This document shows, one piece after another, positions 39,604 through 64,000 of a stretch of 64,000 nt of DNA (positions are counted from its first letter, which is position 1; the number at the start of each line of letters is the position of its first letter). Source of the DNA: Solirubrobacterales bacterium (GTDB lineage Bacteria > Pseudomonadota > Alphaproteobacteria > Rhodospirillales > Magnetospirillaceae). The notes under the pieces were generated by a model, which had not been told where the DNA came from, made no database searches, and was given only the letters and a program-made list of their open reading frames with translations. Made by a program: the position numbers and the translations under genes. The stretch covers positions 18,198 to 82,197 of the forward strand of contig JBLNCP010000041.1 in NCBI GenBank assembly GCA_050260775.1, given 5' to 3'.

Positions 39604-39615
39604 CGGAGGCTTGCC

Positions 39616-39891
39616 ATGAAGATGCGTTTCCCGGTCCTGCTCGCCGCCGCCGCCACGCTCGCCCTGGCCGCCTGCGAGGATCCCTACCGGCTGTCGCCGA
39701 CCTTCGGCGACTCGGTGCGCCACAACATGCGGATCCAGATGGTCAACCCCGACCCCATCCCGTCCACGGCGTCCGCCGAGGACCAGACCGACGGCGACCT
39801 GGCGGCCTCGGCCTACGACCGCTACCGCACCGGCAAGGTCAAGGCCCTGAAGCCGACCACCTCGACCGACCTCAAGGGAGCCCGGCCATGA
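39616..39891 (+). CDS. small lipoprotein of the tad locus (family unassigned)
   Basis: 91 aa with lipobox LALAAC. It occupies the position between the secretin gene and the tadG-like gene, overlapping the latter by 4 nt. Confidence 0.5.
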   Translation: MKMRFPVLLAAAATLALAACEDPYRLSPTFGDSVRHNMRIQMVNPDPIPSTASAEDQTDGDLAASAYDRYRTGKVKALKPTTSTDLKGARP

Positions 39892-41297: not shown

Positions 41298-41301
41298 CCT
41301 C

Positions 41302-41760: not shown

Positions 41761-41769
41761 GGGGCAGCC

Positions 41770-42369: not shown

Positions 42370-42383
42370 ACCGGAGAACCATC

Positions 42384-43580: not shown

Positions 43581-43591
43581 AAGGTGTCCGC

Positions 43592-44989: not shown

Positions 44990-44999
44990 GGAGGCCGCC

Positions 45000-45977: not shown

Positions 45978-45992
45978 CCGGAGACCGTCACC

Positions 45993-46922: not shown

Positions 46923-46933
46923 GGGAGGCCGCC

Positions 46934-47971: not shown

Positions 47972-48849
47972 GGAAGATCATCCTGCCGCTGGTGACGCTC
48001 TCGGTGCTGTCGCTCGGGGCCTGTGCCGGCAACCCGAACACCGAACGGCCCGCCACCAGCCGGACCAAGGTTGAAGTGGAGGCCATGGTGGAGGCGGGCC
48101 ACTCCGCCCTTGCCGACGGCCACCCTGAGGAGGCGTCGCAATACTTCTCGCGGGCGCTGACCGAGGCTCCCGACAATGGCCGGGCCAAACTGGGCCTGGC
48201 CGAACTGAAGCTGCTGCGCGGCGAATATCCCCGTGCCGCCCAGATGTTCAAGGACCTGGAGAGCGACGAGGTCGTTGCGGCCGCTGCCAAGCAGGGCAGG
48301 GGGATCGCCCTGCTGATGGGCGGCAAGTCCGACGCGGCGCAGGCCGAACTCGAAGCGGCGGTCGCCGAGGATGCCAAGCTGTGGCGGGCATGGAATGCCC
48401 TCGGCCACATCCACGACCGCGCCAAGCGCTGGGACGAGGCCACCGCCTGCTACACCGCCGCCATCGAGGCGCTGCCCGGGTCGGCGTATCCGCACAACAA
48501 CCTCGGCTATTCCTACCTGCTGCAGGGCAAGTACCCCGAGGCGGCGCGCGAGTTGTCCGAGGCGCTCAGGCTCAAGCCGGATTTCGAGGTGGCGCGCAAC
48601 AACCTGCGGCTGGCCCTGGCATGGCAGGGCCGCTACGTGGAGGCCCTGGCGGGGGTGCCGCGCGAGAAGATGCCGGCCGCGCTCAACAATGTGGGCTACG
48701 CGGCGCTGGTCCGCGGGGACCTGTCGGCGGCGGAGGCCTACCTGACCCGCGCGGTGGAGGTCAGTCCCAGCTTCTTCGAACCCGCGGCCAAGAACCTGCT
48801 GCAACTGGATGCGGCCAAGGGGACCGACACCAGCCAGGGGGGGCGCTGA
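47968..48849 (+). CDS. TadD-like TPR lipoprotein
   Basis: Lipobox LSLGAC followed by multiple TPR repeats. It overlaps the preceding gene by 4 nt (ATGA). Confidence 0.7.
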   Translation: MRKIILPLVTLSVLSLGACAGNPNTERPATSRTKVEVEAMVEAGHSALADGHPEEASQYFSRALTEAPDNGRAKLGLAELKLLRGEYPRAAQMFKDLESDEVVAAAAKQGRGIALLMGGKSDAAQAELEAAVAEDAKLWRAWNALGHIHDRAKRWDEATACYTAAIEALPGSAYPHNNLGYSYLLQGKYPEAARELSEALRLKPDFEVARNNLRLALAWQGRYVEALAGVPREKMPAALNNVGYAALVRGDLSAAEAYLTRAVEVSPSFFEPAAKNLLQLDAAKGTDTSQGGR

Positions 48850-49350: not shown

Positions 49351-49623
49351 TCAGTCGCGCCGGCGGTCGAAGCTCAGCTTCATGGCGATCAGCGCGACGA
49401 TCATCGTCCCGGCCAGCGAGTTGGCGAACACCACCGACCAGCCGTCCAGCATCAGGCCGTAGATTATCCACAGGGCCATGGCCACCAGGGCCATGATCAT
49501 CCAGCTGAAGCTGAGATCCTGGGCCGAGCGGGTCACCCAGGTCCGGCGGACCTGCGGCAGCAGCGAGACGGTCGACAGGACGGCGGCGACCATGCCGACC
49601 GCTTCGGCGTTGATGTGGCCCAA
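49351..49623 (-). CDS. SemiSWEET / PQ-loop family transporter
   Basis: Three-TM protein with the PQ motif (LSTVSLLPQVRRTW.TRSAQDLS). A TTG start at 49623 is supported by a GGGAGGG RBS 5 nt upstream. The ATG at 49656 is the alternative. Confidence 0.65.
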   Translation of the reverse strand: MGHINAEAVGMVAAVLSTVSLLPQVRRTWVTRSAQDLSFSWMIMALVAMALWIIYGLMLDGWSVVFANSLAGTMIVALIAMKLSFDRRRD

Positions 49624-49670
49624 GGGACCCTCCCAAAAGTTTCTCGGCGTCCGCACCTTAGTGCCCAGGG

Positions 49671-49688
49671 GGTTACCAGATGGTAACC
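49671..49688. promoter_or_regulatory. perfect 8-2-8 palindrome GGTTACCA-GA-TGGTAACC in the divergent promoter region
   Basis: Read directly from the sequence. It lies between the SemiSWEET gene (-) and the five-gene cassette (+). Confidence 0.5.
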
Positions 49689-49779
49689 ATTTTTGGGTAG
49701 TGCTGGAATCAATCGGGGAAACCCGCCGTCGCGCCGGGTGCCCCGGCCGGGGGCCAGCGGACGTTAGGAGGGGTCAGGG

Positions 49780-50577
49780 ATGAATAGTCGTGAACGCCAG
49801 ATGCTCGAGATCCTCAAGCGGGGCCGGGACGAGTTCGGGTACACCGCCATCAAGGCGGAGTTCGAGGCCGAAGGCACCCGGGTCGAGGAGCTTCTGCGCC
49901 TTATCGAGATCACCCGCAAGGCCGGCCTGAATTTCGGCCTGAAGATCGGCGGCTGCGAGGCCATGCGCGACCTGCTGGAGGCCGTGCAGATCGGCGTCGA
50001 ATACATCATCGCGCCGATGATCGAGAGCCCCTACGCGCTGTCCAAGTTCATCGACGGCAAGAACAAAGTCTACGACAAGGACCAGCAGCAGGACACCGAC
50101 TTCCTGTTCAACCTGGAAACCATCTCGGCGTTCAACTGTCTGTCCGACATGATCGCCATGGCCAAGGCCCCCGGCGGCACCAATGGCGTGGTGTTCGGCC
50201 GCGTCGACTTCTCGCTGTCGTGCGGCTACTCGCGTGACGCCATCAACGACGACAAGGTCACCGACTACGTCGTCGCCACCGCGGCGGCGTGCAAGGAGAA
50301 CGACCTCGACATCGTCGTCGGCGGCGGCGTCTCCATGGACGCGATCCCGGCGCTGCGCCGGATCAAGCAGACCAAGCTCACCCGGTTCGAGACCCGCAAG
50401 ATCATCTTCAAGGGCGAGGCCATCGACACCCCCAACATCGAGAAGGGCCTGCTCAACGCGGTTCATTTCGAGTTGCTGTGGCTGCTGAACAAGCGCGACT
50501 ACTACGGCCTGATCCAGCACGAGGACGACAAGCGCATCGAGATGCTCGAGAAGCGCTGGAAAGTCCTGAACGGCTGA
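49780..50577 (+). CDS. TIM-barrel aldolase / citrate-lyase-like (HpcH/HpaI superfamily) protein, putative
   Basis: 265 aa. The pattern KAEFEAEG...KIGGCEA..D...A...[15 protein letters not shown] resembles PEP/pyruvate-binding TIM-barrel lyases. The assignment is tentative. Confidence 0.45.
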
Positions 50578-50593
50578 TCCGGGGAGCCGTCGG

Positions 50594-51307
50594 ATGGCGG
50601 GGGGAAGCGCCGGCACGCTGCTGCTGTTCGGTGGCACCGGCGTGATCGCCGGCGCCATCCGGGACCTTTTCAAATCCCAGGGCTGGCGGGTGGTTTCGAC
50701 CGCCCGCCGACCGCCCGAGGGGGCCGGCGACGACTGGGTCGCCTTCGACCCCTTCGCCGAGGGGTTCGACCACGCTTGCCTAGACGGGCGGGGACCGTTC
50801 TCGGCGGTGGTGTGGGCGCAGGGCGCCAACCGCAACGACAGCGTCTACGATCTCGATGTCGACGCCCATCTCGACCTCTACCGCGCCAACGTGCTGTTCA
50901 ACCTGGTGAGCCTCAAGCTGATGCTCGACCGGGGGCTGCTGGCTCCGGCCAGCCGCCTGTGCGTGATCAGCTCCATCTGGCAGAACCTGGCGCGCCAGAA
51001 AAAGCTGTCCTACTGCGTCACCAAATCGGCGCTGCAGGGGTTCGTGCTTTCGGCCTCCGCCGATCTTGCCGAGGACGGCCACGTCATCAACGCCATTCTG
51101 CCCGGCGCCCTGGATACTCCGATGACCCGGGCCAACCTGCAGCCGGCGCAGATCGCCGCCATCGCCGGCGCCACCAAATTCGGTCGTCTGCCCCAGCTGG
51201 ACGACGTCGCCAACCTGGCACTGTTCCTGTGCGGTCCCGGCAATACCGGCATCACCGGGCAGTTCATCGCCGCCGATCTGGGATTCAGCCATGTCCGCAT
51301 CGTTTGA
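50594..51307 (+). CDS. short-chain dehydrogenase/reductase
   Basis: FGGTGVIAGAI (Rossmann), then SS...YCVTKSAL (Ser and YxxxK) and PGALDTPMT. Confidence 0.8.
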   Translation: MAGGSAGTLLLFGGTGVIAGAIRDLFKSQGWRVVSTARRPPEGAGDDWVAFDPFAEGFDHACLDGRGPFSAVVWAQGANRNDSVYDLDVDAHLDLYRANVLFNLVSLKLMLDRGLLAPASRLCVISSIWQNLARQKKLSYCVTKSALQGFVLSASADLAEDGHVINAILPGALDTPMTRANLQPAQIAAIAGATKFGRLPQLDDVANLALFLCGPGNTGITGQFIAADLGFSHVRIV

Positions 51308-52364
51308 GGTTTCGTCGAGCACCGGCGCCTACGGCGTCGAGATCGTGCCGGGCTCGTTCGCCGCGCTGGCCAAGGCGACCGGTGACGTGGTGACGGTCTG
51401 CGACGAGCGTTTCGCCAAGGATCTCGGCGGCGGGCGCGTGCTGGCCCTGGCCGCCGACGAATCCACCAAGAGCCTGGAAGCCATGCCGGCCATCATCAGC
51501 CGCCTGCGCGAGCTGGGCGCCACGCGCTCGACCCGGCTGGTCGCCGTGGGCGGCGGCATCGTCCAGGACGTGGCCGCCTTCTGCGCCTCGGTCTACATGC
51601 GCGGGCTGGTGTGGGAATACTGGCCGACCACCCTGCTGGGCATGGTCGATTCCTGCATCGGCGGCAAATCCTCCATCAACGCCGGTGCCTACAAGAACCT
51701 GGTCGGCACCTTCCATCCGCCCGAGACCATCCGCATCGATCCCCGCCTTGCCGCCTCGCTGTCGATCGAGCAGCGCGTCGCCGGCCTGTGCGAGGCGGTC
51801 AAGATCTGCTTCGCCGGGGGCGACGAGCCCTTCGCCGCCTATCTCGCCCGCAATCCCGAGGTGGCCATGGGCGAGGTGGAACTGGAGGGAGTGATCCACT
51901 CCACCCTGCTGACCAAGAAGTGGTTCATCGAGGTCGACGAGTTCGACCGCGCCGAACGCCTGCTGCTCAATTTCGGCCACACCTTTGGCCACGCCATCGA
52001 GGCGGCCTCCGCCTTCGCCATCAGCCACGGGGTGGCGGTCGGCCTCGGCATGCTGTGCGCAGCCGAACTGGGCGCCCGCCGCGGCTTCGATTACGCCAAG
52101 GTCGCCCGGGTGCGCCAGTTGGTGGCGCATACCGAGGCGCTGCTGGCCAAGGTCGCGGGCCTCGCCCAGGCTTTGGGGCGGGTCGATCCGGCGGCGGCCA
52201 CCGAGCGCCTGCTGGCCGACAAGAAGCACGGCGCCGATTTCCTGGCGGTCATCGCCATCGACGCCCAGGGGCATCTGGAGCGGCTCAAGCTGCCGCGCAC
52301 TCCCGAGAGCCTGGACACCATCCGCGGCGTGTTCGCCGCCATCATCGCGAGATACGGGGCATGA
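51291..52364 (+). CDS. 3-dehydroquinate synthase-like sugar-phosphate cyclase family protein
   Basis: GGGIVQDVAAFCAS, DSCIGGKSSINAGAYKNLVGTFHPP and LNFGHTFGHAIE match DHQS-family motifs. It overlaps the SDR gene by 17 nt and is not next to aroK. Confidence 0.8.
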   Translation: MSASFEVSSSTGAYGVEIVPGSFAALAKATGDVVTVCDERFAKDLGGGRVLALAADESTKSLEAMPAIISRLRELGATRSTRLVAVGGGIVQDVAAFCASVYMRGLVWEYWPTTLLGMVDSCIGGKSSINAGAYKNLVGTFHPPETIRIDPRLAASLSIEQRVAGLCEAVKICFAGGDEPFAAYLARNPEVAMGEVELEGVIHSTLLTKKWFIEVDEFDRAERLLLNFGHTFGHAIEAASAFAISHGVAVGLGMLCAAELGARRGFDYAKVARVRQLVAHTEALLAKVAGLAQALGRVDPAAATERLLADKKHGADFLAVIAIDAQGHLERLKLPRTPESLDTIRGVFAAIIARYGA

Positions 52365-54127
52365 AGTACAGCGACGTCCTCGCCGACTGGCTGGTCCAGC
52401 TCGGCTATACCCACTGCTTCTATCTGGCGGGCGGCAACATCATGCACCTGCTGGAAAGCGTCAGCCGGCGCTTCACCGCCATCCCGGTGGTGCACGAGGT
52501 CTGCGGCGGCATCGCCGCCGAGTACTTCACCGAGATCCCCGAAGGCGGCCGCGCCTTCGCGCTGGTCACCGCCGGTCCGGGCCTCACCAACATCGTCACC
52601 GCCATGGCGGGCGCCTTCCTGGAGAGCCGCGAACTTCTGGTGCTGGGCGGCCAGGTTAAGGTCCCCGACCTTGCGCGCGGCCAGTTGCGCCAGCGCGGCA
52701 TCCAGGAGATCGCCGGCGTCGACATCGCCCGCCCGGTCACGGTGCTGTCGCACCTGATGGACGAGGTGCTGGACCGCGAGGCCTTCTGCCGCGTCGCCGA
52801 GTCCGGCAGCTCCGGCCGCAAGGGTCCCGTCTTCATCGAGATCCCGCTCGACATCCAGGCCCGCGACGTCGATGCCGACGCGTTGGGGGCGTCGCCGCTG
52901 GCGGTCCGCCGCGGTACGGCGCCGCAGGGGCCGTCCGCCGCCGAGATGGACAAGGTGGCGGCCATGGTGCGCGCCGCCGAGCGACCGGTGCTGCTGCTGG
53001 GCGGCGGCGTCTCGCGCGCCGCCGCGGCGGCGGCCGATTTCGCCGCCATGGGCGTGCCGGTGCAGACCACCTGGAACGGCGCCGACCGCGTCGCCGCCGA
53101 CCACCCGCTCTATTTCGGCCGCCCCAATACCTGGGGCCAGCGCTACGCCAACCTCGTGCTGCAGCAGGCCGACCTCGTGGTCGCGCTGGGCAGCCGGCTC
53201 GGCCTGCAGCAGACCGGCTTCAATCACCAGGAATTCGCGCCCGTCGCCAAGGTGGTCCAGGTGGATTGCGATCCGGCCGAGTTGGACAAGGGCCATCCCC
53301 GGGTTGACCTGCCTCTGTGCGGCGATGCCGACCGGGTGCTCGCCCACCTGGGCTCCGCCACGCTCGGCGACCACGGCGCCTGGGTCGAGTATTGCCGCGA
53401 GATCAAGGCGTCGGTGCCCCTGATCGAGCCGATCAACACCACCGGCCCCGACTTCATCTCCCCCTACGTGTTCTGCGAGACCCTGTCGCGGCTGTGCGCC
53501 GAGGGCGACGTCGTCATCCCCTGCAGCAGCGGCGGCGCCTTCACGGTGATGATGCAGACCTTTGCCCAGAAGCGGGGCCAGCGCATCGTCACCGACAAGG
53601 GACTGGCGTCCATGGGCTATGGCCTGTCGGGCGCCATCGGCGCGGCGCTGGCCGCCGATGGCAAGCGGACGGTGCTGGTGGAGGGCGACGGCGGCTTCGC
53701 CCAGAACCTGCAGGAAATCGGCACGGTGGCGGCCAATCGCCTGAACCTCAAGATGTTCGTCTTCGACGACAGCGGCTACGCCTCGATCCGCATGACCCAG
53801 CGCAACTACTTCGGCGGGCGCTACGTCGGCTGCGACCTCAACACCGGCCTCGGCCTGCCCGACTGGGACAAGCTGTTCGGGGTGTGGGGTGTCCCCGCCT
53901 ACCGGCTGAAGCCCGGCTTTGCCGATGATGCCGGGTTCCGCGCCCTGTTCGACCAGCCCGGGCCGGTCGGCTTCATCGTGCCGGTCGATCCTGGCCAGAC
54001 CTATCTCCCCAAGATCGCCAGCCGGGTGACCGAGACTGGCGGCATGGTGTCGAACCCGCTGCACCTGATGTCGCCGCCGCTGGACGATGCGGTGATGGCC
54101 CGGGTCGGCCGCTACCTGCCCAAGTGA
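52361..54127 (+). CDS. thiamine-diphosphate-dependent enzyme (acetolactate synthase large-subunit-like)
   Basis: An N-terminal Pyr domain (VHEVCGGIAAEYF..., TAGPGLTNIVTAMA), a central domain, and a C-terminal PP domain with GDGGFAQNLQE...N (ThDP-Mg motif). ATGA overlap with the preceding gene. Confidence 0.85.
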   Translation: MKYSDVLADWLVQLGYTHCFYLAGGNIMHLLESVSRRFTAIPVVHEVCGGIAAEYFTEIPEGGRAFALVTAGPGLTNIVTAMAGAFLESRELLVLGGQVKVPDLARGQLRQRGIQEIAGVDIARPVTVLSHLMDEVLDREAFCRVAESGSSGRKGPVFIEIPLDIQARDVDADALGASPLAVRRGTAPQGPSAAEMDKVAAMVRAAERPVLLLGGGVSRAAAAAADFAAMGVPVQTTWNGADRVAADHPLYFGRPNTWGQRYANLVLQQADLVVALGSRLGLQQTGFNHQEFAPVAKVVQVDCDPAELDKGHPRVDLPLCGDADRVLAHLGSATLGDHGAWVEYCREIKASVPLIEPINTTGPDFISPYVFCETLSRLCAEGDVVIPCSSGGAFTVMMQTFAQKRGQRIVTDKGLASMGYGLSGAIGAALAADGKRTVLVEGDGGFAQNLQEIGTVAANRLNLKMFVFDDSGYASIRMTQRNYFGGRYVGCDLNTGLGLPDWDKLFGVWGVPAYRLKPGFADDAGFRALFDQPGPVGFIVPVDPGQTYLPKIASRVTETGGMVSNPLHLMSPPLDDAVMARVGRYLPK

Positions 54128-55077
54128 TGGGCCGCCTCGCCTTCTCGCCCCATGTGGGCGCCGCCCTGGCGGCCTCCGGGCTGTCGGTGGCGGTGACCGG
54201 CGGGGGAGGATGGATCGGCCAGGGCGCCCTCGAAATGCTGGAGGGCGCCCTGGGCGACGACTTCGCCGCCCGCGTCCGCGTGTTCGGCTCGCGGGCCCGG
54301 TCGCTGGAGCTCCGCTCCGGCCGGCAGGTGGCCTGCGCGCCGCTGGCGCGGATGGCGGAACTGCCGCCCGGGCCCTGGGCCTTCCTTCATTTCGCCTTCC
54401 TCACCCGCGACCGTCTGGGCGGGCAATCGGTGGACAGCTTCATCGCCGGCAACCAGGCGATCACCGACACGGTGGCGGCGGCCGCCGAGCGCGTGCACGT
54501 GCGCGGCATGGTCTCGGTGTCGTCGGGGGCGGTGCATCTGCCGGGCGGGCTGGAAGGCAACGCCTACGGTGCCATGAAGCTGCGCGAGGAGGAGCGGCTG
54601 TCCGAGCTGGCCGGCCGTCTCGGGGCCGCGCTGATGGTGCCGCGGCTGTTCGCGCTGTCAGGCCCCTTCGTCAACAAGCTCGACACCTACGCCCTGGCCT
54701 CGATCCTGGTGGCGGCGCTCAAGGGCGGACCGGTGGTGCTGCGTGCCGGCCATCGGGTCGAGCGCTCGTACATCCACGTGCGCGACGTGGTCGATCTGTG
54801 CGTGGCGGGAATGCTGGCGGGGGATTGTCCCCAGGCGCCCTTTGACGCCTGCGGCTCCGAGGTTGTGGAGATGGGGGAACTGGCGCGTCGGGCCCTGGCG
54901 GTGCTGGGACGGCCCGCCATCGCCATCGAGCGCCCGCCGGTGGATGCCACGCGGGTCGACCGCTACACCGGCGATCCGGCGACGGTGCGGGCGCTGGCCG
55001 CCCGCCACGGCATCCGCTTGCTCGACCTGGACGCCCAGATCGCCAGCACGGCGGAATACCTACACCAGCTTTCCTGA
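54124..55077 (+). CDS. NAD-dependent epimerase/dehydratase family protein
   Basis: VTGGGGWIGQG Rossmann motif, and YGAMK (YxxxK). GTG 54124 or ATG 54127 overlaps the stop of the ThDP enzyme gene. Confidence 0.7.
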   Translation: MMGRLAFSPHVGAALAASGLSVAVTGGGGWIGQGALEMLEGALGDDFAARVRVFGSRARSLELRSGRQVACAPLARMAELPPGPWAFLHFAFLTRDRLGGQSVDSFIAGNQAITDTVAAAAERVHVRGMVSVSSGAVHLPGGLEGNAYGAMKLREEERLSELAGRLGAALMVPRLFALSGPFVNKLDTYALASILVAALKGGPVVLRAGHRVERSYIHVRDVVDLCVAGMLAGDCPQAPFDACGSEVVEMGELARRALAVLGRPAIAIERPPVDATRVDRYTGDPATVRALAARHGIRLLDLDAQIASTAEYLHQLS

Positions 55078-56997
55078 CATCGCCGTCAGTTCGCGGGCCA
55101 TGGCCCGCACCACCGGCTCCCAGTCGTCGACCCGCTCCTGCCGGAACAGCCGCGCGCTGGGATACCACGGGCTGTCCTCGCGGTCGCGCAGCCAGCGCCA
55201 GTCGGCCACCGCCGACAGCATCATCCACAGGGGACGGCCGAGGGCTCCGGCCAGGTGGGCGGGAGCGGTGCACGAACTGATGACCAGATCCAGGCCGGCC
55301 ATGATGGCGGCGGTGTCGTCGAAGCTTTGGATGTCGGCGCCCAGGTCGGTGACGTTGGCGGGCAGGTCGCGGTCGGCGAGGTGCCGGCGGCCGTCTTCCT
55401 TCTGCAGGGCGAAGAAGTGTACGCCCGGAACGTCGAACAGCGGCGCCACGGCGGCCAGGCCCGGCGAGCGCCAATGGTCCTCGGCGAAGGTGGCGCGTCC
55501 CGCCCAGATGATCCCGACCTTGAGGCCCGAGGGCGCCGCCTTGCGCAGGCGCTTGCGCCAGGTGGTCACCAGCTTCTTGTCGGGGCTGAGATAGGGGGCC
55601 TTGCACGGGATGGTGTCCAGCGTGGTGCGCAGCCGCTTGGCCACCCCCATCAGCGGGCAATGGAGGTCGACCTCGGGCAGCGGGGTGCCCGAGCGATGCA
55701 GGGTGCCGACGCCCGCCAGCCGCCCCATGAGGCCAAGGAGCGCCTCGTGCGGGGTGAACACCACGTGGGCGCCCTGGGCGGCCAGCACGGGGACGTAGCG
55801 GGCGAAGAACAAGGTGTCGCCCAGACCCTGTTCGGCATGGACGAGGATGCGGCGGCCGGCCAGATCCTCACCCTGCCACTCGGGCATCGGGAAGGCGCGG
55901 CGATGGGGGGCGAGGTGGGGCGTCTCCCAGCGCGCCTCGTAGCCGTCCCAGCCGCGCACGTCCCCCAGGGTGAGCAGGGCAAGGCCGTGCTCGAGGCGCG
56001 CGTCGACGTTGGCGGGATCGAGTTCCTGCGCCTTGGCGAAGGCGGCGATGGCCTCTTCCAGGTTTCTCGCATACTTGAGCCCGCGTCCCAGGGCGACCCA
56101 CGACGAGGCCTCTGCCGGCTTCAGGTCCAGGGCGCGGCGGTAGGCGGCGATGGCCTCGTCAAAGCGGGCGCCGTCGATGAGGGCGTTGCCGAGATTGCCC
56201 CAGGCGTCGGCCAGGGCGGGATTGAGCGCCAGCGCCCGCGAGATCAGCCTTGCCGCCTCGGCCGGGTTCTTGCCGGCGCGGTGGACGACCCCCAGCAGGT
56301 GCAGGGCGTCGACATTGTCCGGATCGGCGGCCAGCACCGCCTCGTAGCCGGCCCGGGCCTCGTCGTGCCGGCCGGCGCGATGGGCGTCGAACGCGCGCTT
56401 GAGTTGGCTGTCCCGGTCGATTTGCGGGTGATACACAAGGATTGCGCCGTGAGGCTGGCCCAGATAGCCGAGATCGGCCAAACCGGCCTCTACGGCCTTC
56501 AGATCGGGCGCCAGCACCAGGCCGGGGCGGAACCGCTGGATGAGGGCGAGGGCGGCGGCAAGGGTGCCCCCGGAGGCTCCGATCAGGCTGATGCCGTCGA
56601 GGCGGTCGATCAGGCCCTCGGAGGCCAGTCCGTCCACGGTCGAGCCGTCCTCGGGCAGGGCGTAGAGGTTGGTCAGGCGGTTGCCCAGTGCATTGCGGGC
56701 CATCCGCGCCAGGGCGACCGGATCGGTCTCCAGCGCGATGACCCGACCCTCCGGCCCGACGAGGCGGGCGGACAGCAGCGCGAGAAAGCCGATGCCGGCG
56801 CCGAGCTCGACGAACGTTCCCCCGGCGGGAAGGCCGGAGAGAAGGGCGGTCGCCGCCTCCGACTGCGGGAAGGCGCCGGCCTTCAGGCGGGCGAGGACGG
56901 CGGCCTGGGCGGCGATGGCGTCGTCCAAGACCAGGGTCAGGGAGCGGGGCTCCCCGTCCGCCGGGGTGAAGGTGAACGTCAGTTTCTGGAGGGGCAT
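55060..56997 (-). CDS. three-part fusion: SAM-methyltransferase-like N domain, TPR repeats, and a GT9-like (heptosyltransferase-fold) glycosyltransferase domain
   Basis: FVELGAGIGFLAL (SAM motif I). TPR repeats follow (AEAARLISRALALNPALADAWGNLGNAL...). The C-terminal part has ILVHAEQGLGDTLFFARYVP, GIIWAG and DLVISSCTAPAHLAGALGRPLW, typical of GT9. ATG 56997 lies 4 nt after the GT41 stop; GTG 57012 is the alternative. Confidence 0.7.
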   Translation of the reverse strand: MPLQKLTFTFTPADGEPRSLTLVLDDAIAAQAAVLARLKAGAFPQSEAATALLSGLPAGGTFVELGAGIGFLALLSARLVGPEGRVIALETDPVALARMARNALGNRLTNLYALPEDGSTVDGLASEGLIDRLDGISLIGASGGTLAAALALIQRFRPGLVLAPDLKAVEAGLADLGYLGQPHGAILVYHPQIDRDSQLKRAFDAHRAGRHDEARAGYEAVLAADPDNVDALHLLGVVHRAGKNPAEAARLISRALALNPALADAWGNLGNALIDGARFDEAIAAYRRALDLKPAEASSWVALGRGLKYARNLEEAIAAFAKAQELDPANVDARLEHGLALLTLGDVRGWDGYEARWETPHLAPHRRAFPMPEWQGEDLAGRRILVHAEQGLGDTLFFARYVPVLAAQGAHVVFTPHEALLGLMGRLAGVGTLHRSGTPLPEVDLHCPLMGVAKRLRTTLDTIPCKAPYLSPDKKLVTTWRKRLRKAAPSGLKVGIIWAGRATFAEDHWRSPGLAAVAPLFDVPGVHFFALQKEDGRRHLADRDLPANVTDLGADIQSFDDTAAIMAGLDLVISSCTAPAHLAGALGRPLWMMLSAVADWRWLRDREDSPWYPSARLFRQERVDDWEPVVRAMARELTAMSGKLV

Positions 56998-57001
56998 GCC
57001 G

Positions 57002-58861
57002 TCAGAGCGCACTCAGGGCGGTCGGGAAGGGCACGACCCGGCTGGTGGGATCGAGCGACGGCTCGCACCACTGCGCCTTCTCGATGGGGCCCAGGAACAG
57101 CGGGGCGTGCGGCCGCTGCTTCTGGATCTGGTCGTGATTCTGCATGATGTGGTCGATGGCGACCTTGAAGTACTCGACGTCGTGCGGGTCGGACAGGCGC
57201 GAATCGAGGTCGTGGGTGCTGATGCGGTAGGACATGGCGGCCCGGTGGTCCGCGTCGTCGATCAGCCGCACCGCCTTGTCCACGTAGTCGTCGGGGTCGC
57301 GGGCGATCAGTTCCTCCAGGCCGACATGGCTGAGGATCTGGGTGCCGAGGCGGCTGTAGAGGTACTTGCCAGGCAGCACCACGATCGGCTGGCTGTAGTA
57401 GAGCGAATCCAGCACCGAGTTGAAGCCGCCGAACGGATTGGCCTCCAGCGCCATGTCGCCCAGGCTGATGGACTGCATGTAGGCGTCGTTCTGGACGTTC
57501 ATCACCTCGACGACGTCGGCGCCCAGCAGGTTGCCCAGGCTGGTGCGGAACGGCAGCAGGGCGTTGTTCTTGAGGATCGTGTTGAGCGGGAAGAAGCGGT
57601 ACTTGATCGGCGTCGACACCCGGTCGCGGATGCGCCGCAGCAGCTGCAGGTGCTCGGCATTGGTCTTCTGCGCCGTCCACGGACAGTTGATGTAGACGAT
57701 CCCCGGCGGCTTCGGCTCGTAGGTCGGCTTGTAGGTCGACAGGATCGTGCGCGCGCCGATGCCGGGAGTGACCACCAGGCGCTCGCTGAACTCGGTGGTG
57801 TAGTCGTGGGCGTTGAAGGTCATGGTGCCGCCCATGAAGTAGTCGACCTCGCCGCCGAAGGTGGAGACCGGATGGCCGCCCCAGATGATCTGGATGGGGG
57901 CCAGCCGCAGGTTCGAGGTGAAGATGCTCTCCACGCTCATGCCCACGTCCACGAAGATGACGGCGTGGAAGTCGTTCTCCTTCACCGCGTCGAGGTCGAG
58001 CCGTCCGTCGCGCACCACCACGAACTTGACGTCCGAGAACAGCTCGCGGTCGATGTGTTCCTTGATGGTGTAGCCGCTGGTGTAGGCGATCAGGACCAGG
58101 TCGTAGTCCTTGGCCAGCTCCTTCATGTAGTCGTAGTACACGCGATGGACGACATGGCCCTTGTACCAGCGGTCGGTGAACACGCCGATCTTCTTCTTGC
58201 CCTTGCTCTTGGGCTTGTTCTGGATGTCGACCGTGCCGAAGCCGGTGCGGACCAGCTGGTTGATCTTGTGCTTGACCACGGCGTTGAGCGACGGGTCGAT
58301 GTAGGTGACGCCGAAATAGGTGTGGTTGATGGCCGGGGGCACGCCGGTCATGCGCGGGTCCTGGTAGGCCAGGTGCTGGCGCAGGTTGGCGAGGGCATGG
58401 GTGTCGGCGAGGTAGCCGTGGGTCGAGCCGACATAGGCGTAGTACCACATGGTCGCCAGGCCGGCATCGGTGCCGAACAGCAGGCTCCGGTCGACCGCCA
58501 CCGAATTGCGCGGCGAGTAGAGCGCCAGCAGCTTGATGAAGTTGTTGGGCTGGACCAGAAGCTGCTCGATCAGGGAATCGGTGCTGCGGAAGCGCGAGAT
58601 CGAGAAGAGGTTGGCGATGGTCTCGTTGAAGCCGATCACCCGCGAGGCCATGCCGCGGGGAACGACGAAGTCGGCGCGGGTGAACAGGAAGCCCAGCGAC
58701 TGGCAGAACTCGTTGATCTTGGTCTGGACCGTGTCGTCGGCCCGCTGGATGCAGACGGTCGACAGGCGTTCCAGGTATTCGGTGATGACCTCGGTGGCCT
58801 TGGCGTGGTCGCCGTCGAGATAATGGCGCAGGGCGGCCTGGGTATCGAACTGGATGTCCAT
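57002..58861 (-). CDS. HMW1C-like GT41-family glycosyltransferase without TPR repeats, putative protein glycosyltransferase
   Basis: About 620 aa with an all-alpha N-terminal region and no TPR. GT41-like motifs: LAPIQIIWGGHPVSTFGGEVDYFMGG, INCPWTAQKTNAEHLQLLRRI and EANPFGGFNSVLDSLYYSQPIVVLPG. The size is that of H. influenzae HMW1C and A. pleuropneumoniae NGT. ATG 58861 lies 7 nt after the HlyD stop; GTG 58879 is the alternative. Confidence 0.6.
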   Translation of the reverse strand: MDIQFDTQAALRHYLDGDHAKATEVITEYLERLSTVCIQRADDTVQTKINEFCQSLGFLFTRADFVVPRGMASRVIGFNETIANLFSISRFRSTDSLIEQLLVQPNNFIKLLALYSPRNSVAVDRSLLFGTDAGLATMWYYAYVGSTHGYLADTHALANLRQHLAYQDPRMTGVPPAINHTYFGVTYIDPSLNAVVKHKINQLVRTGFGTVDIQNKPKSKGKKKIGVFTDRWYKGHVVHRVYYDYMKELAKDYDLVLIAYTSGYTIKEHIDRELFSDVKFVVVRDGRLDLDAVKENDFHAVIFVDVGMSVESIFTSNLRLAPIQIIWGGHPVSTFGGEVDYFMGGTMTFNAHDYTTEFSERLVVTPGIGARTILSTYKPTYEPKPPGIVYINCPWTAQKTNAEHLQLLRRIRDRVSTPIKYRFFPLNTILKNNALLPFRTSLGNLLGADVVEVMNVQNDAYMQSISLGDMALEANPFGGFNSVLDSLYYSQPIVVLPGKYLYSRLGTQILSHVGLEELIARDPDDYVDKAVRLIDDADHRAAMSYRISTHDLDSRLSDPHDVEYFKVAIDHIMQNHDQIQKQRPHAPLFLGPIEKAQWCEPSLDPTSRVVPFPTALSAL

Positions 58862-58868
58862 GGCAGAC

Positions 58869-60167
58869 TCACTTTTCACGGAAGGCGGTCACGAGGGTCT
58901 TGGAAATCGGATTGAGCAGGTAGGTCAGCACCGTGCGCGGGCGGGTGGGGATGACCACCATCACCGGCATGCCGGGCTGGAGCGACGCGTTGACCGCATG
59001 CACGTCCTCCTGCGAAACCTGGACCTTGGTCATGTAGAAACCGAGGCCGCTGCGGGGATCGACCATGCGGTCGGCGGAGATGGACAGCACCTTGCCGGGC
59101 ACGGTGGGGATCAGCGCCGTCTTGAAGGCGATGAGCTTGACCTGCGCCTCCATGCCGACATGCATCGCCTCGATTTCGTCGGTATGGATCGGCGCCTCGA
59201 TGACCAGGTCGCCGGTGGAGGGCACGATCTCCATCACCTTCTCGCCGGGCGAGATCACGGTGGGGACGCCGTGCACGGTCAGGCCGAGCACGTAGCCGTC
59301 TTCCGGGGCGATCACGGTGGCGCGCGACAGCTGCTCCTTGAGGGCCCTGAGCCGGGGGCCGATCTCGGCCAGGCGGTCCTGCGCCTCCTTGAGCTTGCTG
59401 TTGATCTCTTCCTGCTCCTTGCTGCGGACCAGGGCGATCTCGCGGTCGAGCGTCAGCATGCGCTGGCGCGTCTCGTTGACCCGCGAATCCAGCTCGCCGA
59501 GCGTGCCGGTGAGCCCGGCGAGATCGCGCTCGAGCTCCATCAGCTTGACCCGCGGGGCATAGCCCTTGGTCTGGAGATCGCGCATGCCGTCGACCTGGCT
59601 CTGCAGCGAGTGCACCTGCTTGGACTTGCTGTCGCGCTGGGACTGCAGGCCGACGATGGATTCCTTCAGCTGAACCATCTGCTGGTTGCGCAGCGCGATC
59701 TCGCTGTCCAGCGCGCTGCGGCGCGAGCGCAGCAGCTGCAGCTCCTCGTCGATCTGGTCCTGCCGGACCTTGCTGAGGCCGGCAGGGACCTCAAAGGACG
59801 TCGCCCCGGCGCGCTCGGCCACCAGCCGCGACTCGCGCAGCTTCATGGCGTCGAACTGCGCCTCGGTGATGTCGATGTTGGCCTGGATGTCGGTGACGTC
59901 GAGCACCATCAGCGGCTGGCCCGTGGCCACGTGCTCGCCCTCGCGCACCAGGATCTGGCGGACGATGCCGCCATCGCGGTGCTGGATCGGCTTGCGGTAG
60001 CCCTCGACGGCGACATTGCCCTGGCTGACGACGGCGCCTTCCAGCTCGGCGAAGGCGGCCCAGCCGCCGAACACGCCGAAGAACAGGAAGATGAGCCCCC
60101 CGGCCAGGATGATCAGCTTGCGGGCGCTGTCGTCGATGGCGGCCAGGCGGATGGACGGAGTCGTCAT
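58869..60167 (-). CDS. HlyD-family type I secretion periplasmic adaptor
   Basis: 432 aa with an N-terminal TM helix, a lipoyl-like region (VREGEHVATGQPLMVLD), a long coiled coil, and a C-terminal beta-barrel region, typical of T1SS MFPs. Confidence 0.9.
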   Translation of the reverse strand: MTTPSIRLAAIDDSARKLIILAGGLIFLFFGVFGGWAAFAELEGAVVSQGNVAVEGYRKPIQHRDGGIVRQILVREGEHVATGQPLMVLDVTDIQANIDITEAQFDAMKLRESRLVAERAGATSFEVPAGLSKVRQDQIDEELQLLRSRRSALDSEIALRNQQMVQLKESIVGLQSQRDSKSKQVHSLQSQVDGMRDLQTKGYAPRVKLMELERDLAGLTGTLGELDSRVNETRQRMLTLDREIALVRSKEQEEINSKLKEAQDRLAEIGPRLRALKEQLSRATVIAPEDGYVLGLTVHGVPTVISPGEKVMEIVPSTGDLVIEAPIHTDEIEAMHVGMEAQVKLIAFKTALIPTVPGKVLSISADRMVDPRSGLGFYMTKVQVSQEDVHAVNASLQPGMPVMVVIPTRPRTVLTYLLNPISKTLVTAFREK

Positions 60168-60171
60168 GGCC

Positions 60172-61914
60172 TCACGCCCCCTGCTGCGTCATCGCCGGGG
60201 CCGGCGCGGGGGCCTGCGCCGTGTTGTCGGCGACCTTGACCAGCCGGCGCAGGACCTCGTCGCGGCTGCCGGCCTGCTCGATGACGCCCTCGCGCAGGAC
60301 GATGACGTCCTCGACGATGTTGAGCAGATGCGGCCGATGGGTGATCAGCACCATGGTGGTCCCGTTGGCGCGCATGTGCTGCAGGCAATGGATCAACGAC
60401 TGCTCGCCCTCGAGGTCCAGGTTGGAATTGGGCTCGTCGAGGACCAGGAAGGCCGGCATGCCGTAGACGGCGCGGGCAAGGCCGAGGCGCTGGCGCTGGC
60501 CGGCGGACAACTGCCCGCCGCTGGCCTTGAGCTCGGTGTGATAGCCCTGTGGCAGCCGCATGATCAGTTCGTGGATGCCCGCCAGCTTGGCCGCCTCGAT
60601 CACCTTGGCGTCGTCGCCCTCGGCCAGGCGGGTGATGTTGTCGCGCACGCTGGCGGCGAACAGCTCGATGTCCTGGGGCAGAAAGCCGACATGCTGGCCC
60701 ATTTGGCCCATGTCGATGGTGGCGACGTCGGCGCCGTCGAGGCGGCAATGGCCCGAGGTCGGCTGCAGCGCGCCGACCATCAGGCGGGCCAGCGTGCTCT
60801 TGCCGGCGCCGCTCGGCCCGATCAGGGCCACGGCCGCGCCCGGGCGCATGTCGAAGGTGATGCCCGAGATGATCTGCTTGCCGCTGTCGGGCGGAGAGAA
60901 CACCAGACGCTCCACCGAGATCTGGCCCTTGGGGCGGGGCAGGGCGATGGTGGCTTGGCGCGGCGGTTGCGCCAGCAGCAGGTCGTTCAGGCGCTGGAAG
61001 GCGGCGAACGAGGTGAGGACCGGCCGCCATGAGTTGATCAGCATGTCCACCGGCTGGATGGCGCGGCCGAGCAGCATGGCGATGGCGTACATGCCGCCGA
61101 CGCTCATGCCCATGTCGATGACCAGGAAGGCGCCGATGCCGATGGACAGGATTTGCAGGTATTGGCGCAGGAAGCGCGAGATCGCCGTGAACCAAGCCGA
61201 GCGCTCGCTGGCGATCAACTGCTGCAGCAGCATGTCGTCGCGGCTGACCGACCACTTGCGGGTCAGGCCCTCGAACATGCCCATGGCATGGACCACGTCG
61301 GCGTTGCGGACCGCGGAATCCGTGAACTCGTAATTCTCAAGCCCGCGCGCGTTGGATTGGCGCATCGAGCGGCCGGTGACGATCTCGTTGATCACGCCCA
61401 GCGCGATGAGCAGCACGATGGCGCCGGTGGTGAACAGCCCCGCCACCGGGTGGAGGATGAAGACGACGATGACATTGACCGGGATCCACGGGATGTCGAG
61501 GACGGCCAGCACCGCGGGGCTGGAGAAGAATTGCCGCAGCGTGTCCAGGTCGCGCAACGCCTGCCCGGTCGGCTCGCCCGGCAGCTTGCGGGCGGTGTCG
61601 ATGATGGCGCCGACGGTGCGCTTGGCCAGGCGCCGCTCCACCCGCAAACTGCCGCGGATCAGGATCTCGCTGCGCAGGGCGTCAAGGGCGCCGTTGGTCA
61701 GGGTGGCCAGCGCCGCGATCAGGGTCAGCAGCAGCAGCGAGCTTTCGCTGTGGCTGGTCACCACGCGGTCGTAGACCTGCATCATGTAGATGGGATAGGC
61801 GAGGAACAGCAGGCTGATGGCGAAGCCCAGCGCCCCGGCGACCGACAGATGGACGCCGACGCTGTAAGCCGCGTCGACCAATTCCGTCGCGAAGCGGTTC
61901 TTCAACCGAACCAT
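60172..61914 (-). CDS. type I secretion system permease/ATPase, PrtD-type (no C39 peptidase domain)
   Basis: A six-TM domain is followed by the NBD: Walker A GPSGAGKST, signature LSAGQRQRLGLARA, Walker B FLVLDEPNSNLD. ATG 61914 has a GGAGGGGG RBS. The stop lies 4 nt before the HlyD start. Confidence 0.9.
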   Translation of the reverse strand: MVRLKNRFATELVDAAYSVGVHLSVAGALGFAISLLFLAYPIYMMQVYDRVVTSHSESSLLLLTLIAALATLTNGALDALRSEILIRGSLRVERRLAKRTVGAIIDTARKLPGEPTGQALRDLDTLRQFFSSPAVLAVLDIPWIPVNVIVVFILHPVAGLFTTGAIVLLIALGVINEIVTGRSMRQSNARGLENYEFTDSAVRNADVVHAMGMFEGLTRKWSVSRDDMLLQQLIASERSAWFTAISRFLRQYLQILSIGIGAFLVIDMGMSVGGMYAIAMLLGRAIQPVDMLINSWRPVLTSFAAFQRLNDLLLAQPPRQATIALPRPKGQISVERLVFSPPDSGKQIISGITFDMRPGAAVALIGPSGAGKSTLARLMVGALQPTSGHCRLDGADVATIDMGQMGQHVGFLPQDIELFAASVRDNITRLAEGDDAKVIEAAKLAGIHELIMRLPQGYHTELKASGGQLSAGQRQRLGLARAVYGMPAFLVLDEPNSNLDLEGEQSLIHCLQHMRANGTTMVLITHRPHLLNIVEDVIVLREGVIEQAGSRDEVLRRLVKVADNTAQAPAPAPAMTQQGA

Positions 61915-62076
61915 GATCTGGAAATCCCCCTCCAACCCGGCCAGAGCCCGACGAGAAGCGCCGGGCGCCCCGGGACATGCCCGGACGGACCCTTATCAGT
62001 ATTGGGCTTCGGAAGGTTAATTCTTGGCTAAGCCCGCGCGCGATGGCGTGCGGGGACTCGCCTTTGGGGGAAGGGA

Positions 62077-62106
62077 AGGGGGCGCGGGAAAAATCCGCGC
62101 GCCCCC
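62077..62106 (-). terminator. GC-rich stem-loop between the repeat-protein gene and the ABC exporter gene
   Basis: On the minus strand it reads GGGGGCGCGCGGA-TTTTT-CCCGCGCCCCC followed by TTCCCTTCCCCC. It starts about 14 nt after the stop at 62120. Confidence 0.5.
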
Positions 62107-62119
62107 TCTGTTCCCTGCC

Positions 62120-64000
62120 TTAGACGGTGAAGTCCGCCGCGGTGAGCGAGGTGTTCGACACGCCCAGCAGCACCGAGACCACCGACAGCTCGCCCGACTG
62201 GACGTGGCCGTCGCCGCCGACATTCTCGCGGAACCGCAGGAGCGCTGCGTCGTCGCCCTCGGCGTCGTAGACCACGAACAGCACGTCCTTGGCGTTGCCC
62301 GAGACCGTGAGGCCGGAGAGCATCGTCGCCGCCGAGCTGGTGATCGACGTGGCCGAGCTGCCCGCACTCAGCGAGATGTTCAAGTTGCCGGCGTCGAAGT
62401 CGAACACCAGGTGGCCGCTGTCGGCCGCCAGATTGGCGGTGACCGACACGTTGTTGCTGTACTGGCCGGCGGCGGCGGTGAAGGCCGTCGAGCTGCCGTC
62501 CATGCCCTGGAAGGTCAGGCCGGTGGTGCCATCGCCGAAGCCGATCAGGTCGCTGCCATCGCTGAAGTTGTCGATGACGTCGACGTAGCCCGAGGTACGG
62601 CCCACGTGGGCGAGGTTGTCGTAGCGGACGGTGATGCCGGTGCCCTGGATGTCCAGGGTGTCGGCCCCGTCGCCGCCGATGACGATCCCGCCGTTGGTGG
62701 TGACGTGGATGGTATCGGAACCGGAGTTGCCGACCACGGTGTCCACGTTGGCGACGTAGACCTCGTTGGTGCCGTTGGCGAGCGTCAACCTGTCGGTGCC
62801 CGAACCGCCGTCCATCGTGAAGTCGGTGGTGGTGGTGGTCAGGGTGATCGAGTCGTTGCCGCCGCTGCCGGTCACCGTCTCGATGTTGCTCACCGAGAGG
62901 GTGTTGTCGGCATTGGCGAGGATCAGGTGGTCGCCGCCGGCGCCCAGGTTGATCGAGCCGGTGGTCTGGCCGGCACCCAGGGTGATGTTGTCGTCACCCG
63001 AGCTGCCGACGATGGTCTCGACGTTGGTCACCGTCAGGGTGTGACCGGCGTCGTTCAGGGTCAGCTTGTCGGTGCCGGAGCCGAGATCGATCGTGCCGCC
63101 GACCTGCGAGGTGCTGACGGTGATCGTGTCGTTGCCGGTGCCGCCCATGACCGTCTCGATGCCGGACACGGTGAGGGTGTTGGTGCCATTGGCCAGGTTG
63201 AGGACGTCGGTGCCGGAACCGAAGTCATAGCTTCCGGACGTCTGGGCCACGCTCATCGTCACCGTGTCGGCCCCGGTGCCGCCGAACAGCGTCTCGACGT
63301 TGGCGACCGTCAGGCTGTTGGTGCCGTCGAACAGTTGGACGATGTCCGAGCCGCCCTTGAGGTCGATGGACCCGCTGGTCAGCGCGGTGGCGTAGGTGAT
63401 GGTATCGACGCCCGAGTTGCCGACGACGGTCTCGACGTTGGCCAGGGTCACGGTGTTGGTGCCGGTGGCCAGGTTGAGGATGTCGCTGCCCCCCATCAGG
63501 TCGATGTAGAGGGTGGTTCCGGGCGTGGTCAGCGTCACCGTGTCGACGTTGGCGTTACCGATGATGCTCTCGGTATTGGCCACCGTCAGCGTGTTGACGC
63601 CGTTGGCCAGGACCAGGGTGTCGTCGCCGGCGCCCAGGTTGATGGTACCGGTGGTCTGGGCGGTGCCCAGGGTGATGGTGTCGCCCTGGCTCTTGCCGGT
63701 GATGGTTTCCACGTTGCTGATGGTCAGCGTGTTCCAGTCATCGGCCAGCGTCAGCGAGTCGGTGCCGTTGCCGAGGTCGACCGTGCCGCTGGCGAGGCCC
63801 GCACCCAGGGTGATGGTGTCGGTGCCCTCGTTGCCGACCAGCTTCTCGACGTCGGTCACCGTCAGGGTGTTGGTGCCGTTGGCGAGAACCAGGGTGTCGG
63901 TGCCGTCGTTGAGGTCGATGGTGCCGGTGGTCTGGGCCACGTCCATCGTCACCACGTCGGAGCCGGCGCCGCCGATCACGGTCTCGATGTTGGAGACATG
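62120..64000 (-). CDS. large RTX-like repeat protein with a T1SS C-terminal target region (N-terminus outside the window)
   Basis: The frame is open to the window edge. At least nine 46-aa repeats each carry GGxGxDxUx-like motifs (GGTGNDTIT, GSGGNDSIT, GAGDDTLVL). The C-terminus has GGDGADTLDI...VDVIDNFSDGSDLIGF and ends ...LTAADFTV, typical of T1SS substrates. Confidence 0.8.
   Translation of the reverse strand, partial: HVSNIETVIGGAGSDVVTMDVAQTTGTIDLNDGTDTLVLANGTNTLTVTDVEKLVGNEGTDTITLGAGLASGTVDLGNGTDSLTLADDWNTLTISNVETITGKSQGDTITLGTAQTTGTINLGAGDDTLVLANGVNTLTVANTESIIGNANVDTVTLTTPGTTLYIDLMGGSDILNLATGTNTVTLANVETVVGNSGVDTITYATALTSGSIDLKGGSDIVQLFDGTNSLTVANVETLFGGTGADTVTMSVAQTSGSYDFGSGTDVLNLANGTNTLTVSGIETVMGGTGNDTITVSTSQVGGTIDLGSGTDKLTLNDAGHTLTVTNVETIVGSSGDDNITLGAGQTTGSINLGAGGDHLILANADNTLSVSNIETVTGSGGNDSITLTTTTTDFTMDGGSGTDRLTLANGTNEVYVANVDTVVGNSGSDTIHVTTNGGIVIGGDGADTLDIQGTGITVRYDNLAHVGRTSGYVDVIDNFSDGSDLIGFGDGTTGLTFQGMDGSSTAFTAAAGQYSNNVSVTANLAADSGHLVFDFDAGNLNISLSAGSSATSITSSAATMLSGLTVSGNAKDVLFVVYDAEGDDAALLRFRENVGGDGHVQSGELSVVSVLLGVSNTSLTAADFTV
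62720..64000 (-). repeat. in-frame tandem repeats of about 138 bp (46 aa) inside the RTX-like gene
   Basis: The repeat consensus by eye is G(T/S)IDLG.G.D.L.LANGTNTLTV.NVET..G..G.DTITL......, seen at least nine times. The array continues past position 64000. Confidence 0.85.

Follow-up and report, generated by a model that had tools for sequence, protein, structure and literature searches.

A Type I Secretion Operon with a Candidate Built-In Protein Glycosylation Module in a Probable Rhodospirillales Bacterium

The window analyzed here is a stretch of 64,000 nucleotides (nt) of contig JBLNCP010000041.1 (assembly GCA_050260775.1, positions 18,198 to 82,197 of the forward strand), with a GC content of ~69%. 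Five co-directional genes on its minus strand, running from 55060 to the window edge at 64000, encode a repeat-rich candidate substrate (the cargo), the ABC and HlyD components of a type I secretion system, and two enzymes that are putative protein glycosyltransferases. The same five genes had been recognized in a preliminary description of this DNA, and their GC content at third codon positions (0.90 to 0.95) is of the coding type. The features of the locus are as follows.

62120..64000, minus strand: 3' part (626 codons) of an RTX-like cargo gene, with the reading frame open to the window edge.
62069..62119 (core 62077-62107), minus strand: GC-rich stem-loop 3' of the cargo stop codon, from folding of the spacer.
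60172..61914, minus strand: PrtD-type ABC permease/ATPase of 580 amino acids (aa), from TIGR01842 and Pfam ABC_membrane and ABC_tran.
58869..60167, minus strand: HlyD-family type I periplasmic adaptor of 432 aa, from TIGR01843.
57002..58861, minus strand: HMW1C-like glycosyltransferase of family GT41, 619 aa, cytoplasmic, from Pfam GT41, AlphaFold/Foldseek, and residue conservation.
55060..56997, minus strand: methyltransferase-TPR-GT9-like fusion protein of 645 aa, from TPR matches and sub-threshold GT9 and methyltransferase matches.
49780..55077, plus strand: convergent operon, possibly for a sugar pathway, with an 18-nt overlap between its 3' end and the GT9-like gene.

The junctions between the last four minus-strand genes were read directly: the ABC and HlyD genes are separated by 4 nt (TGA-GGCC-ATG), the HlyD and GT41 genes by 7 nt (TGA-GTCTGCC-ATG), and the GT41 and GT9-like genes by 4 nt (TGA-CGGC-ATG). 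The same start codons were assigned independently by gene calling on three Logan contigs of this organism. With junctions this short (4, 7, and 4 nt), separate promoters cannot be accommodated, and this arrangement argues for translational coupling, coexpression, and a shared function of the four genes. The tight packing first described applies to these four genes but not to the cargo gene, which is set apart from the ABC gene by a 205-nt spacer with a hairpin. Directly 3' of the cargo stop codon, the hairpin comprises a GC-rich 13-bp stem and is followed by a pyrimidine tract (UUCCCUUCCCCC); the folding energy of the spacer was −103.9 kcal/mol (z = −2.79 versus shuffles). A simple terminator scan did not flag this hairpin because it has no U-run. 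The hairpin may function as an attenuator, so that some transcripts of a highly expressed cargo gene would end before the exporter genes.

Both exporter assignments made in the preliminary description were upheld by curated models. The ABC protein scored 606.2 bits with TIGR01842 (PrtD type; cutoff, 510) over residues 31 to 565, contained neither a C39 nor a CLD N-terminal domain, and fell far below the cutoffs of glucan and lipid exporter models. The adaptor scored 359.3 bits with TIGR01843 (cutoff, 208.7) over its full length. No TolC-like gene was found among the ~50 open reading frames scanned across the 64-kb window, as noted earlier; this factor is often unlinked, and its absence is not decisive.

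The product of 57002..58861 had been called HMW1C-like by eye, a call that profile, fold, and residue comparisons all bear out. Pfam GT41 (PF13844) matched at 51.8 bits (gathering cutoff, 25), and HMW1C_N scored 18.6 (cutoff, 27). The nearest solved proteins by sequence were the N-glycosyltransferases (NGTs) ApNGT and AaNGT (E ~1e-24). An AlphaFold model (44 homologues in the alignment; mean pLDDT, 91) placed ApNGT/AaNGT structures (3q3e, 8j30, and 8p0q) at the top of a Foldseek search, with TM scores of 0.76 to 0.77 over ~620 to 640 columns, while OGT and SPY/SPINDLY reached only ~0.5. In this model no part of the HMW1C-type architecture is missing: an all-alpha N-terminal domain is joined to a GT-B fold, without TPR. 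The donor-site residues His277, Arg281, Gly370-His371, Thr438, Lys441, Tyr501, Asn521, and Asp525 (ApNGT numbering) are identical, and Lys441, His371, and Asp525 are invariant across 44 family members; the roles of the UDP-sugar-binding and catalytic residues are those given for AaNGT (PMC10507012). Because of the full-length structural match and the conserved donor site, the enzyme is probably active. Neither this protein nor the methyltransferase-TPR-GT9-like protein has a signal peptide.

The fusion protein comprises a class I S-adenosylmethionine (SAM) methyltransferase-like domain (residues 1 to 190), a TPR domain (~195 to 345), and a GT9-like GT-B domain (~346 to 645). TPR matches reached E = 1e-20, and 14 of 14 homologous C-terminal domains matched GT9 alone (best E, 1.6e-6). 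A profile search of the PDB with the GT9-like domain gave a marginal match to WaaC (E = 0.13) on a DTAA...AHLAGALG motif, and a single-sequence search of the PDB with the same domain gave nothing significant. The methyltransferase domain contains the GxGxG SAM motif (VELGAGIG), and its best PDB match had an E value of 1e-4. AlphaFold confidence was high for residues 190 to 645 (pLDDT > 95) and low in the methyltransferase domain because the alignment does not cover that domain. The TPR plus GT-B layout is the architecture of OGT, SPY, and FlmG. Foldseek with the fusion model returned SPY and OGT as the best PDB matches (E = 1e-12), at TM scores of only 0.25 to 0.31, too low to discriminate between GT9 and GT41. 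The TPR-GT9-like family is very large, with the best matches in Azospirillaceae and Magnetospirillum; a precomputed methyltransferase domain was present in none of the 120 fusion-protein matches listed. The closest relatives (L093:8507-11395 and L092:6854-11811), with glycosyltransferase domains 52 to 57% identical, also have no methyltransferase domain. One lies 13 nt downstream of a pentapeptide-repeat protein gene; the other adjoins an IalB gene, 1.2 kb from an autotransporter. These neighbors hint at repeat or surface proteins as further targets of the huge TPR-GT9 family.

The N terminus of the cargo lies beyond the window, since the frame from 62120 is still open at 64000. The visible fragment contains at least nine repeats, with a period of exactly 46 aa nine times over (consensus, NVETVxGxxGxDTITL...IDLGxGxDxLxLAxGxNTLTV), followed by ~200 nonrepeat residues and the C terminus ...SLTAADFTV. 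Gly/Asp turns occur twice per repeat (GxxGxDTITL and DLGxGxDxL), and the fragment contains some five exact GGxGxD motifs. No tandem repeat of period 138 was detected in the DNA of the cargo gene, which indicates an old origin of the 46-aa repeats, with divergence of their DNA since. The fragment had no Pfam match at E ≤ 0.01, PF00353 included, and a weak NCBIfam match to the SMc04171 calcium-binding repeat; its homologues are annotated as "Ca2+-binding RTX toxin-like protein," and many carry PF00353. "RTX-like cargo" is a fair description at the level of sequence, with membership in the classical nonapeptide family unproven. The extreme C terminus, an acidic residue followed by hydrophobic residues, has the pattern of an uncleaved type I secretion signal, and a ...[LS][ST]AADF... 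C terminus is common to several RTX-annotated homologues; a secretion signal ending in DFTV is therefore presumed. Many proteins of 750 to 950 aa (P0120 to P0138 and P0147) combine this 46-residue repeat with calpain-type Peptidase_C2 domains, and most of the calpain-RTX proteins checked end in ...PWTFNANSFVQV, unlike the ...AADFTV of the window cargo.

We consider it the most likely reading, at about even odds, that cytoplasmic protein glycosylation is built into a dedicated type I secretion operon here and acts on the unfolded repeat cargo before export. In such a system, a giant calcium-binding RTX-like cargo with the C-terminal signal DFTV would be made from the upstream gene, and the hairpin 3' of its stop codon would let part of transcription run on into the four downstream genes. 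The two soluble enzymes would then modify the cargo while it is still unfolded in the cytoplasm: GT41 would add the first sugar from a UDP-sugar, and the TPR domain of the fusion protein would bind the cargo while its GT-B and methyltransferase domains added or methylated a further sugar. The decorated chain would leave via ABC-HlyD and an outer-membrane TolC encoded elsewhere. The gene identities, the fold, the conserved donor-site residues, and the operon packing are observed; that the cargo is the acceptor, that the enzymes act in this order, and that a glycosylated chain passes through the channel, we infer. Neither the linkage (Asn or Ser/Thr) nor the donor sugar is fixed by this reading of the operon. 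A more specific version is put forward tentatively and with less than even confidence: that the operon represents the first type I system to carry cytoplasmic glycosylation enzymes of its own, in which a GT41 with a remodeled acceptor pocket and the methyltransferase-TPR-GT9-like protein decorate, and possibly methylate, the 46-residue repeats, the GT41 being a branch of a large HMW1C-like family (Planctomycetes, cyanobacteria, Verrucomicrobia, and Alphaproteobacteria) that serves giant surface proteins through several export routes.

Observations of three kinds, from the fusion protein, from gene neighborhoods, and from the cargo together with the acceptor site, count against a cargo-glycosylating operon. 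As to the fusion protein, the three-domain layout proposed earlier stood, with strong TPR matches, but the scores of the two outer domains lie under curated thresholds: GT9 (PF01075) reached 19 to 21 bits, just below the gathering cutoff of 22, and the methyltransferase domain gave only weak, sub-threshold Pfam and NCBIfam matches (arsenite methyltransferase, CbiT, FkbM, and PCMT; E values, 2e-5 to 4e-3).

As to neighborhoods, the GT41 query yielded a family of 119 members, the closest 46 to 51% identical and the rest, mostly from Planctomycetes, cyanobacteria, and Verrucomicrobia, 20 to 40% identical. A genome scan gave 80 family loci, and none of the 83 family loci screened in all had an HlyD match beside the GT41-like gene. 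No HlyD gene preceded GT41 in two of the closest relatives, P0002 and P0004, whose contigs are ≤3 kb long, and no type I secretion genes lay beside GT41 in P0002, P0004, or P0005. The module was found only in this organism (the window and the three Logan contigs), that is, in one lineage. Two calpain-RTX homologues with the same repeat type (P0120 and P0121) were orphan genes without transporters or glycosyltransferases. Metagenome scans for GT41-type I secretion synteny gave nothing useful, and the best plasmid-borne HlyD/ABC relatives (35 to 41% identical; Haematospirillum and Indioceanicola) had no adjoining glycosyltransferases. A tblastn search of plasmids with GT41 recovered EtpC-like genes at ~20 to 27% identity, and an epimerase adjacent to P0002 showed weak homology to the window epimerase. 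Conserved synteny, by which the preliminary description had proposed to judge its idea, was thus largely absent for the type I secretion genes. The exception is P0005, which is 46% identical and, alone among the close GT41 relatives, lies on a long contig; 9 kb away is a 3,326-aa RTX protein that contains first canonical RTX nonapeptides and then the same 46-residue repeat, 37% identical to the window cargo.

The lack of conserved linkage to type I secretion would also be expected if both glycosyltransferases modified another protein (flagellin, Flp pilin, an autotransporter, or cytoplasmic proteins) and were passengers in a secretion operon. The P0005 locus itself carries FlaF and deoxy/amino-sugar (Pse-like) genes, so that flagellin is a possible target there; relatives of the TPR-GT9-like protein lie beside unrelated proteins, as described above; and the window contains a Tad pilus locus at a distance of 6 kb. 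Set against this are the 4- to 7-nt gaps to the exporter genes, with the coexpression and shared function that they argue for, the absence of any flagellin, pilin, or autotransporter gene inside the operon, and the recurrence of the repeat-protein link at the P0005 locus. On balance, we regard a target other than the cargo as unlikely but a serious rival. The contig with P0005 (L004:1-21827; ENA ERZ1793607 NODE_21) also encodes an RPA/Rep3 plasmid-type replication protein, DegT, a PseB-like dehydratase, an RmlC-like protein, and epimerases in addition to FlaF and the RTX protein, and it may represent a combined flagellin and surface-protein glycosylation island.

Large N/S/T/G-rich repeat proteins were encoded within 7 kb of the GT41-like gene at 17 of the 83 family loci. 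At five planctomycete loci (L028:10001-18516, L013:10001-19464, L010:10001-21834, L032:8351-12357, and L074:2663-11721), the GT41 relatives are 34 to 38% identical, the neighbors range from 700 to >2,900 aa, and in L028, L013, L010, and L032 the repeat protein is encoded just downstream of the GT41-like gene. The repeat-protein neighbors include DUF5649-repeat proteins and one protein with a two-partner secretion (TPS) domain. The numbers of N-X-S/T sequons observed versus expected were 114 versus 49 (L028), 120 versus 65 (L013), 40 versus 16 (L032), and 97 versus 54 (L074), about twice the level set by composition (z = 7 to 11) and also above a reversed-motif control. In a Telmatospirillum metagenome-assembled genome (MAG; JADCGL010000007.1, L097:9299-18746), a GT41-like gene is flanked by IalB and FkbM-type methyltransferase genes, followed by a gene for a 1,199-aa autotransporter-like protein (72 sequons versus 36 expected) and then by those for two TPR proteins. 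This locus contains parts of the window module in unfused form, minus the GT9-like domain, and pairs them with a type V cargo. The wider GT41 family looks like a large group of HMW1C-type modifiers of giant surface or secreted proteins outside the known hosts. Given the P0005 repeat-protein link and these sequon-rich giant neighbors, the family behaves like HMW1C, a modifier of giant secreted proteins. Both observations favor a role in protein glycosylation, the P0005 link ambiguously so because of the FlaF and sugar genes at that locus.

Methyltransferases recur beside the GT41-like family. Verrucomicrobial members (L005:574-2142 and a cluster of seven loci, e.g., L019:756-2435) have a 520- to 530-aa methyltransferase neighbor, which in L005 is divergently encoded and carries the winged-helix domain of Rickettsia-type protein-lysine methyltransferases. 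HMW1C-like genes on Escherichia coli and Salmonella plasmids in PLSDB (H1 to H85; e.g., NC_017724.1, 10709-12295), including those of the enterotoxigenic E. coli (ETEC) strains H10407 and E24377A, are widely annotated as "cobalt ABC transporter permease," which appears to be a propagated misannotation.

The cargo and the acceptor site bear on whether the window GT41 is a true NGT/HMW1C N-glycosyltransferase that, before export, adds hexose to Asn of the repeat sequons, such as the NGT of LANGTNTLTV. It resembles the NGTs over the whole fold and in the donor site, and the sequons listed in the preliminary description exist: 11 N-X-S/T in the visible 626 aa, or 17.6 per 1,000 aa compared with 2.45 in the other 46 window proteins, a 7-fold difference. 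This density follows from a Thr/Ser/Asn-rich composition (17% Thr, 8.5% Ser, and 7.5% Asn; Ser plus Thr, 25%), and the count is that of chance (12.0 ± 2.8 in composition shuffles; z = −0.35), so sequon enrichment was rejected as evidence for glycosylation. Nor did the sequon hold a conserved position in the repeat, as had been claimed; the NGT tripeptide occurs there in only four of nine repeats, and the best-conserved Asn residues (NVET and NTLT) lie outside sequons. The RTX-like partner of P0005 likewise has 2 sequons versus 3.4 expected. In AaNGT, Arg177 and Asp215, both essential and conserved among NGTs, read the Ser/Thr at sequon position +2 (PMC10507012). In the window clade this dyad is replaced, Arg177 by Thr or His (GSTHGY) and His214-Asp215 by Asn-His (INHTYF), whereas Arg and His-Asp are retained by the true HMW1C-like sequences aligned alongside; the alignment at these positions of the all-alpha domain rests on ~20% identity. 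As an argument that excludes N-glycosylation, the substitution is weakened by members that share it and adjoin strongly sequon-enriched proteins: P0086 has NHAYF at the dyad position and a partner with 72 sequons versus 36 expected, and planctomycete members with HH have partners with 114 versus 49 and 120 versus 65. The substitutions alone are therefore no bar to Asn-linked glycosylation. An HMW1C-like enzyme of Yersinia pestis is reported to be an O-GlcNAc transferase (PMC11329713). With the NCBIfam equivalog model for UDP-glucose:protein N-glucosyltransferase (NF049992), the window GT41 scored 107 bits against a cutoff of 1000 (aligned over residues 61 to 554). Taken together, the evidence makes a true NGT at this locus distinctly unlikely.

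Very improbable is a nonprotein product (a glycolipid or an oligo- or polysaccharide), or a target within the secretion machinery instead of the cargo: lipopolysaccharide cores are the classical substrates of GT9 enzymes and the adjacent operon is a possible sugar pathway, but TPR is a protein-binding module, the ABC protein passes the protein-exporter model and not those for glucans or lipids, and all characterized GT41 enzymes known to us act on proteins.

Covalent modification of a type I cargo in the cytoplasm has a precedent in the hlyCABD operon, in which HlyC modifies the RTX cargo before export by fatty acylation of Lys. Like the window, hlyCABD is a type I operon with a cargo-modifying enzyme; the chemistry differs, and the enzyme families are unrelated. 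In the glycocins (sublancin, SunS/SunT), glycosylation is cytoplasmic and the glycosyltransferase gene adjoins that of a dedicated ABC exporter. These systems differ from the window in making small Gram-positive bacteriocins with a leader peptide, exported by a C39-peptidase ABC protein and modified by a GT2 enzyme that forms S- or O-links.

The closest parallels in gene content are HMW1ABC of Haemophilus influenzae and EtpBAC of ETEC, in which an HMW1C-like GT41 is likewise clustered with a dedicated secretion system and a giant repeat exoprotein, and in which the exoprotein is modified before export (PMC4550697, PMC3012730). The window GT41 shares the two-part fold and the donor site of the HMW1C-type enzymes. 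It is only ~20 to 24% identical to ApNGT and EtpC-like proteins, and its dyad is replaced, unlike that of HMW1C. Further differences are that the window exporter is of the one-step ABC/HlyD type whereas HMW1ABC and EtpBAC use Sec plus TpsB, that the window cargo is not sequon enriched, and that the window adds a TPR-bearing glycosyltransferase with a methyltransferase domain. NGTs also decorate secreted adhesins in Actinobacillus pleuropneumoniae (ApNGT with a partner glucosyltransferase), in Kingella kingae (Knh), and in Aggregatibacter aphrophilus (EmaA) (PMC5303269, PMC4550697). Those systems resemble the window in having a soluble NGT-type enzyme and, in A. pleuropneumoniae, a second glycosyltransferase; they differ in that their cargos are type V, the sequon dyad is kept, and the enzymes reach the NGT equivalog cutoff. 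In addition, the K. kingae glycosyltransferase is unlinked to its substrate gene, whereas the window GT41 is in one operon with the exporter. For the fusion protein, the nearest analogue in domain architecture is Caulobacter FlmG, in which TPR binds flagellin and GT-B sets donor specificity, and which acts in the cytoplasm ahead of export via a narrow channel (PMC7591256; 10.1101/2022.03.25.485807). Residues 195 to 645 of the fusion protein have the same TPR plus GT-B layout; the GT-B domain is GT9-like, a methyltransferase-like domain is fused on, and the setting is a type I secretion operon, not a flagellar one.

A full-text literature search found no paper linking type I secretion with GT41 or HMW1C, in agreement with the earlier statement that these enzymes are known only with two-partner or autotransporter cargos, and the available part of a large review of type I systems makes no mention of cargo glycosylation.

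The surroundings of the module contain further genes of possible relevance to sugar metabolism. The plus-strand operon encodes a 265-aa protein, a short-chain dehydrogenase/reductase, an AroB-like sugar-phosphate cyclase (270 bits to TIGR04425), an acetolactate synthase-like thiamine diphosphate enzyme, and an NAD-dependent epimerase, a gene content from which its product may be an unusual donor, either a sugar or a cyclitol. Ahead of this operon, on the minus strand, is a SemiSWEET transporter gene (region 49351-55077). The Tad/Flp pilus locus (37130-48849) encodes RcpC/CpaB, a secretin, a TadE/G-like protein, the CpaF ATPase, TadB, TadC, and a TPR TadD-like protein. A GT41 protein identical to that of the window (P0001) is named in NCBI as belonging to a "Solirubrobacterales bacterium" MAG (Actinomycetota). 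The content of the window is alphaproteobacterial (TrcR, DUF1465, type I secretion, and the Tad pilus), with best matches in Azospirillaceae, which makes a Rhodospirillales-type alphaproteobacterium the most likely source; the Solirubrobacterales bin or taxonomy label is probably wrong.

Secretion-coupled cytoplasmic glycosylation of the HMW1C type has already been described for two-partner and autotransporter adhesins, and the window module is a probable new variant of it, wired to type I secretion in a single lineage. If the cargo is glycosylated, then the ABC-HlyD-TolC conduit can carry sugar-decorated unfolded chains, a property that would matter for the transport mechanism and for the engineering of type I systems to secrete glycoproteins, and that would offer a route to explain the origin of glycosylated RTX-type surface proteins. 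The altered acceptor pocket could provide new specificities for glycoengineering, in which ApNGT is already a tool. For the family as a whole, these results suggest a range for HMW1C-like protein glycosylation much wider than the Pasteurellaceae and Enterobacteria studied so far.

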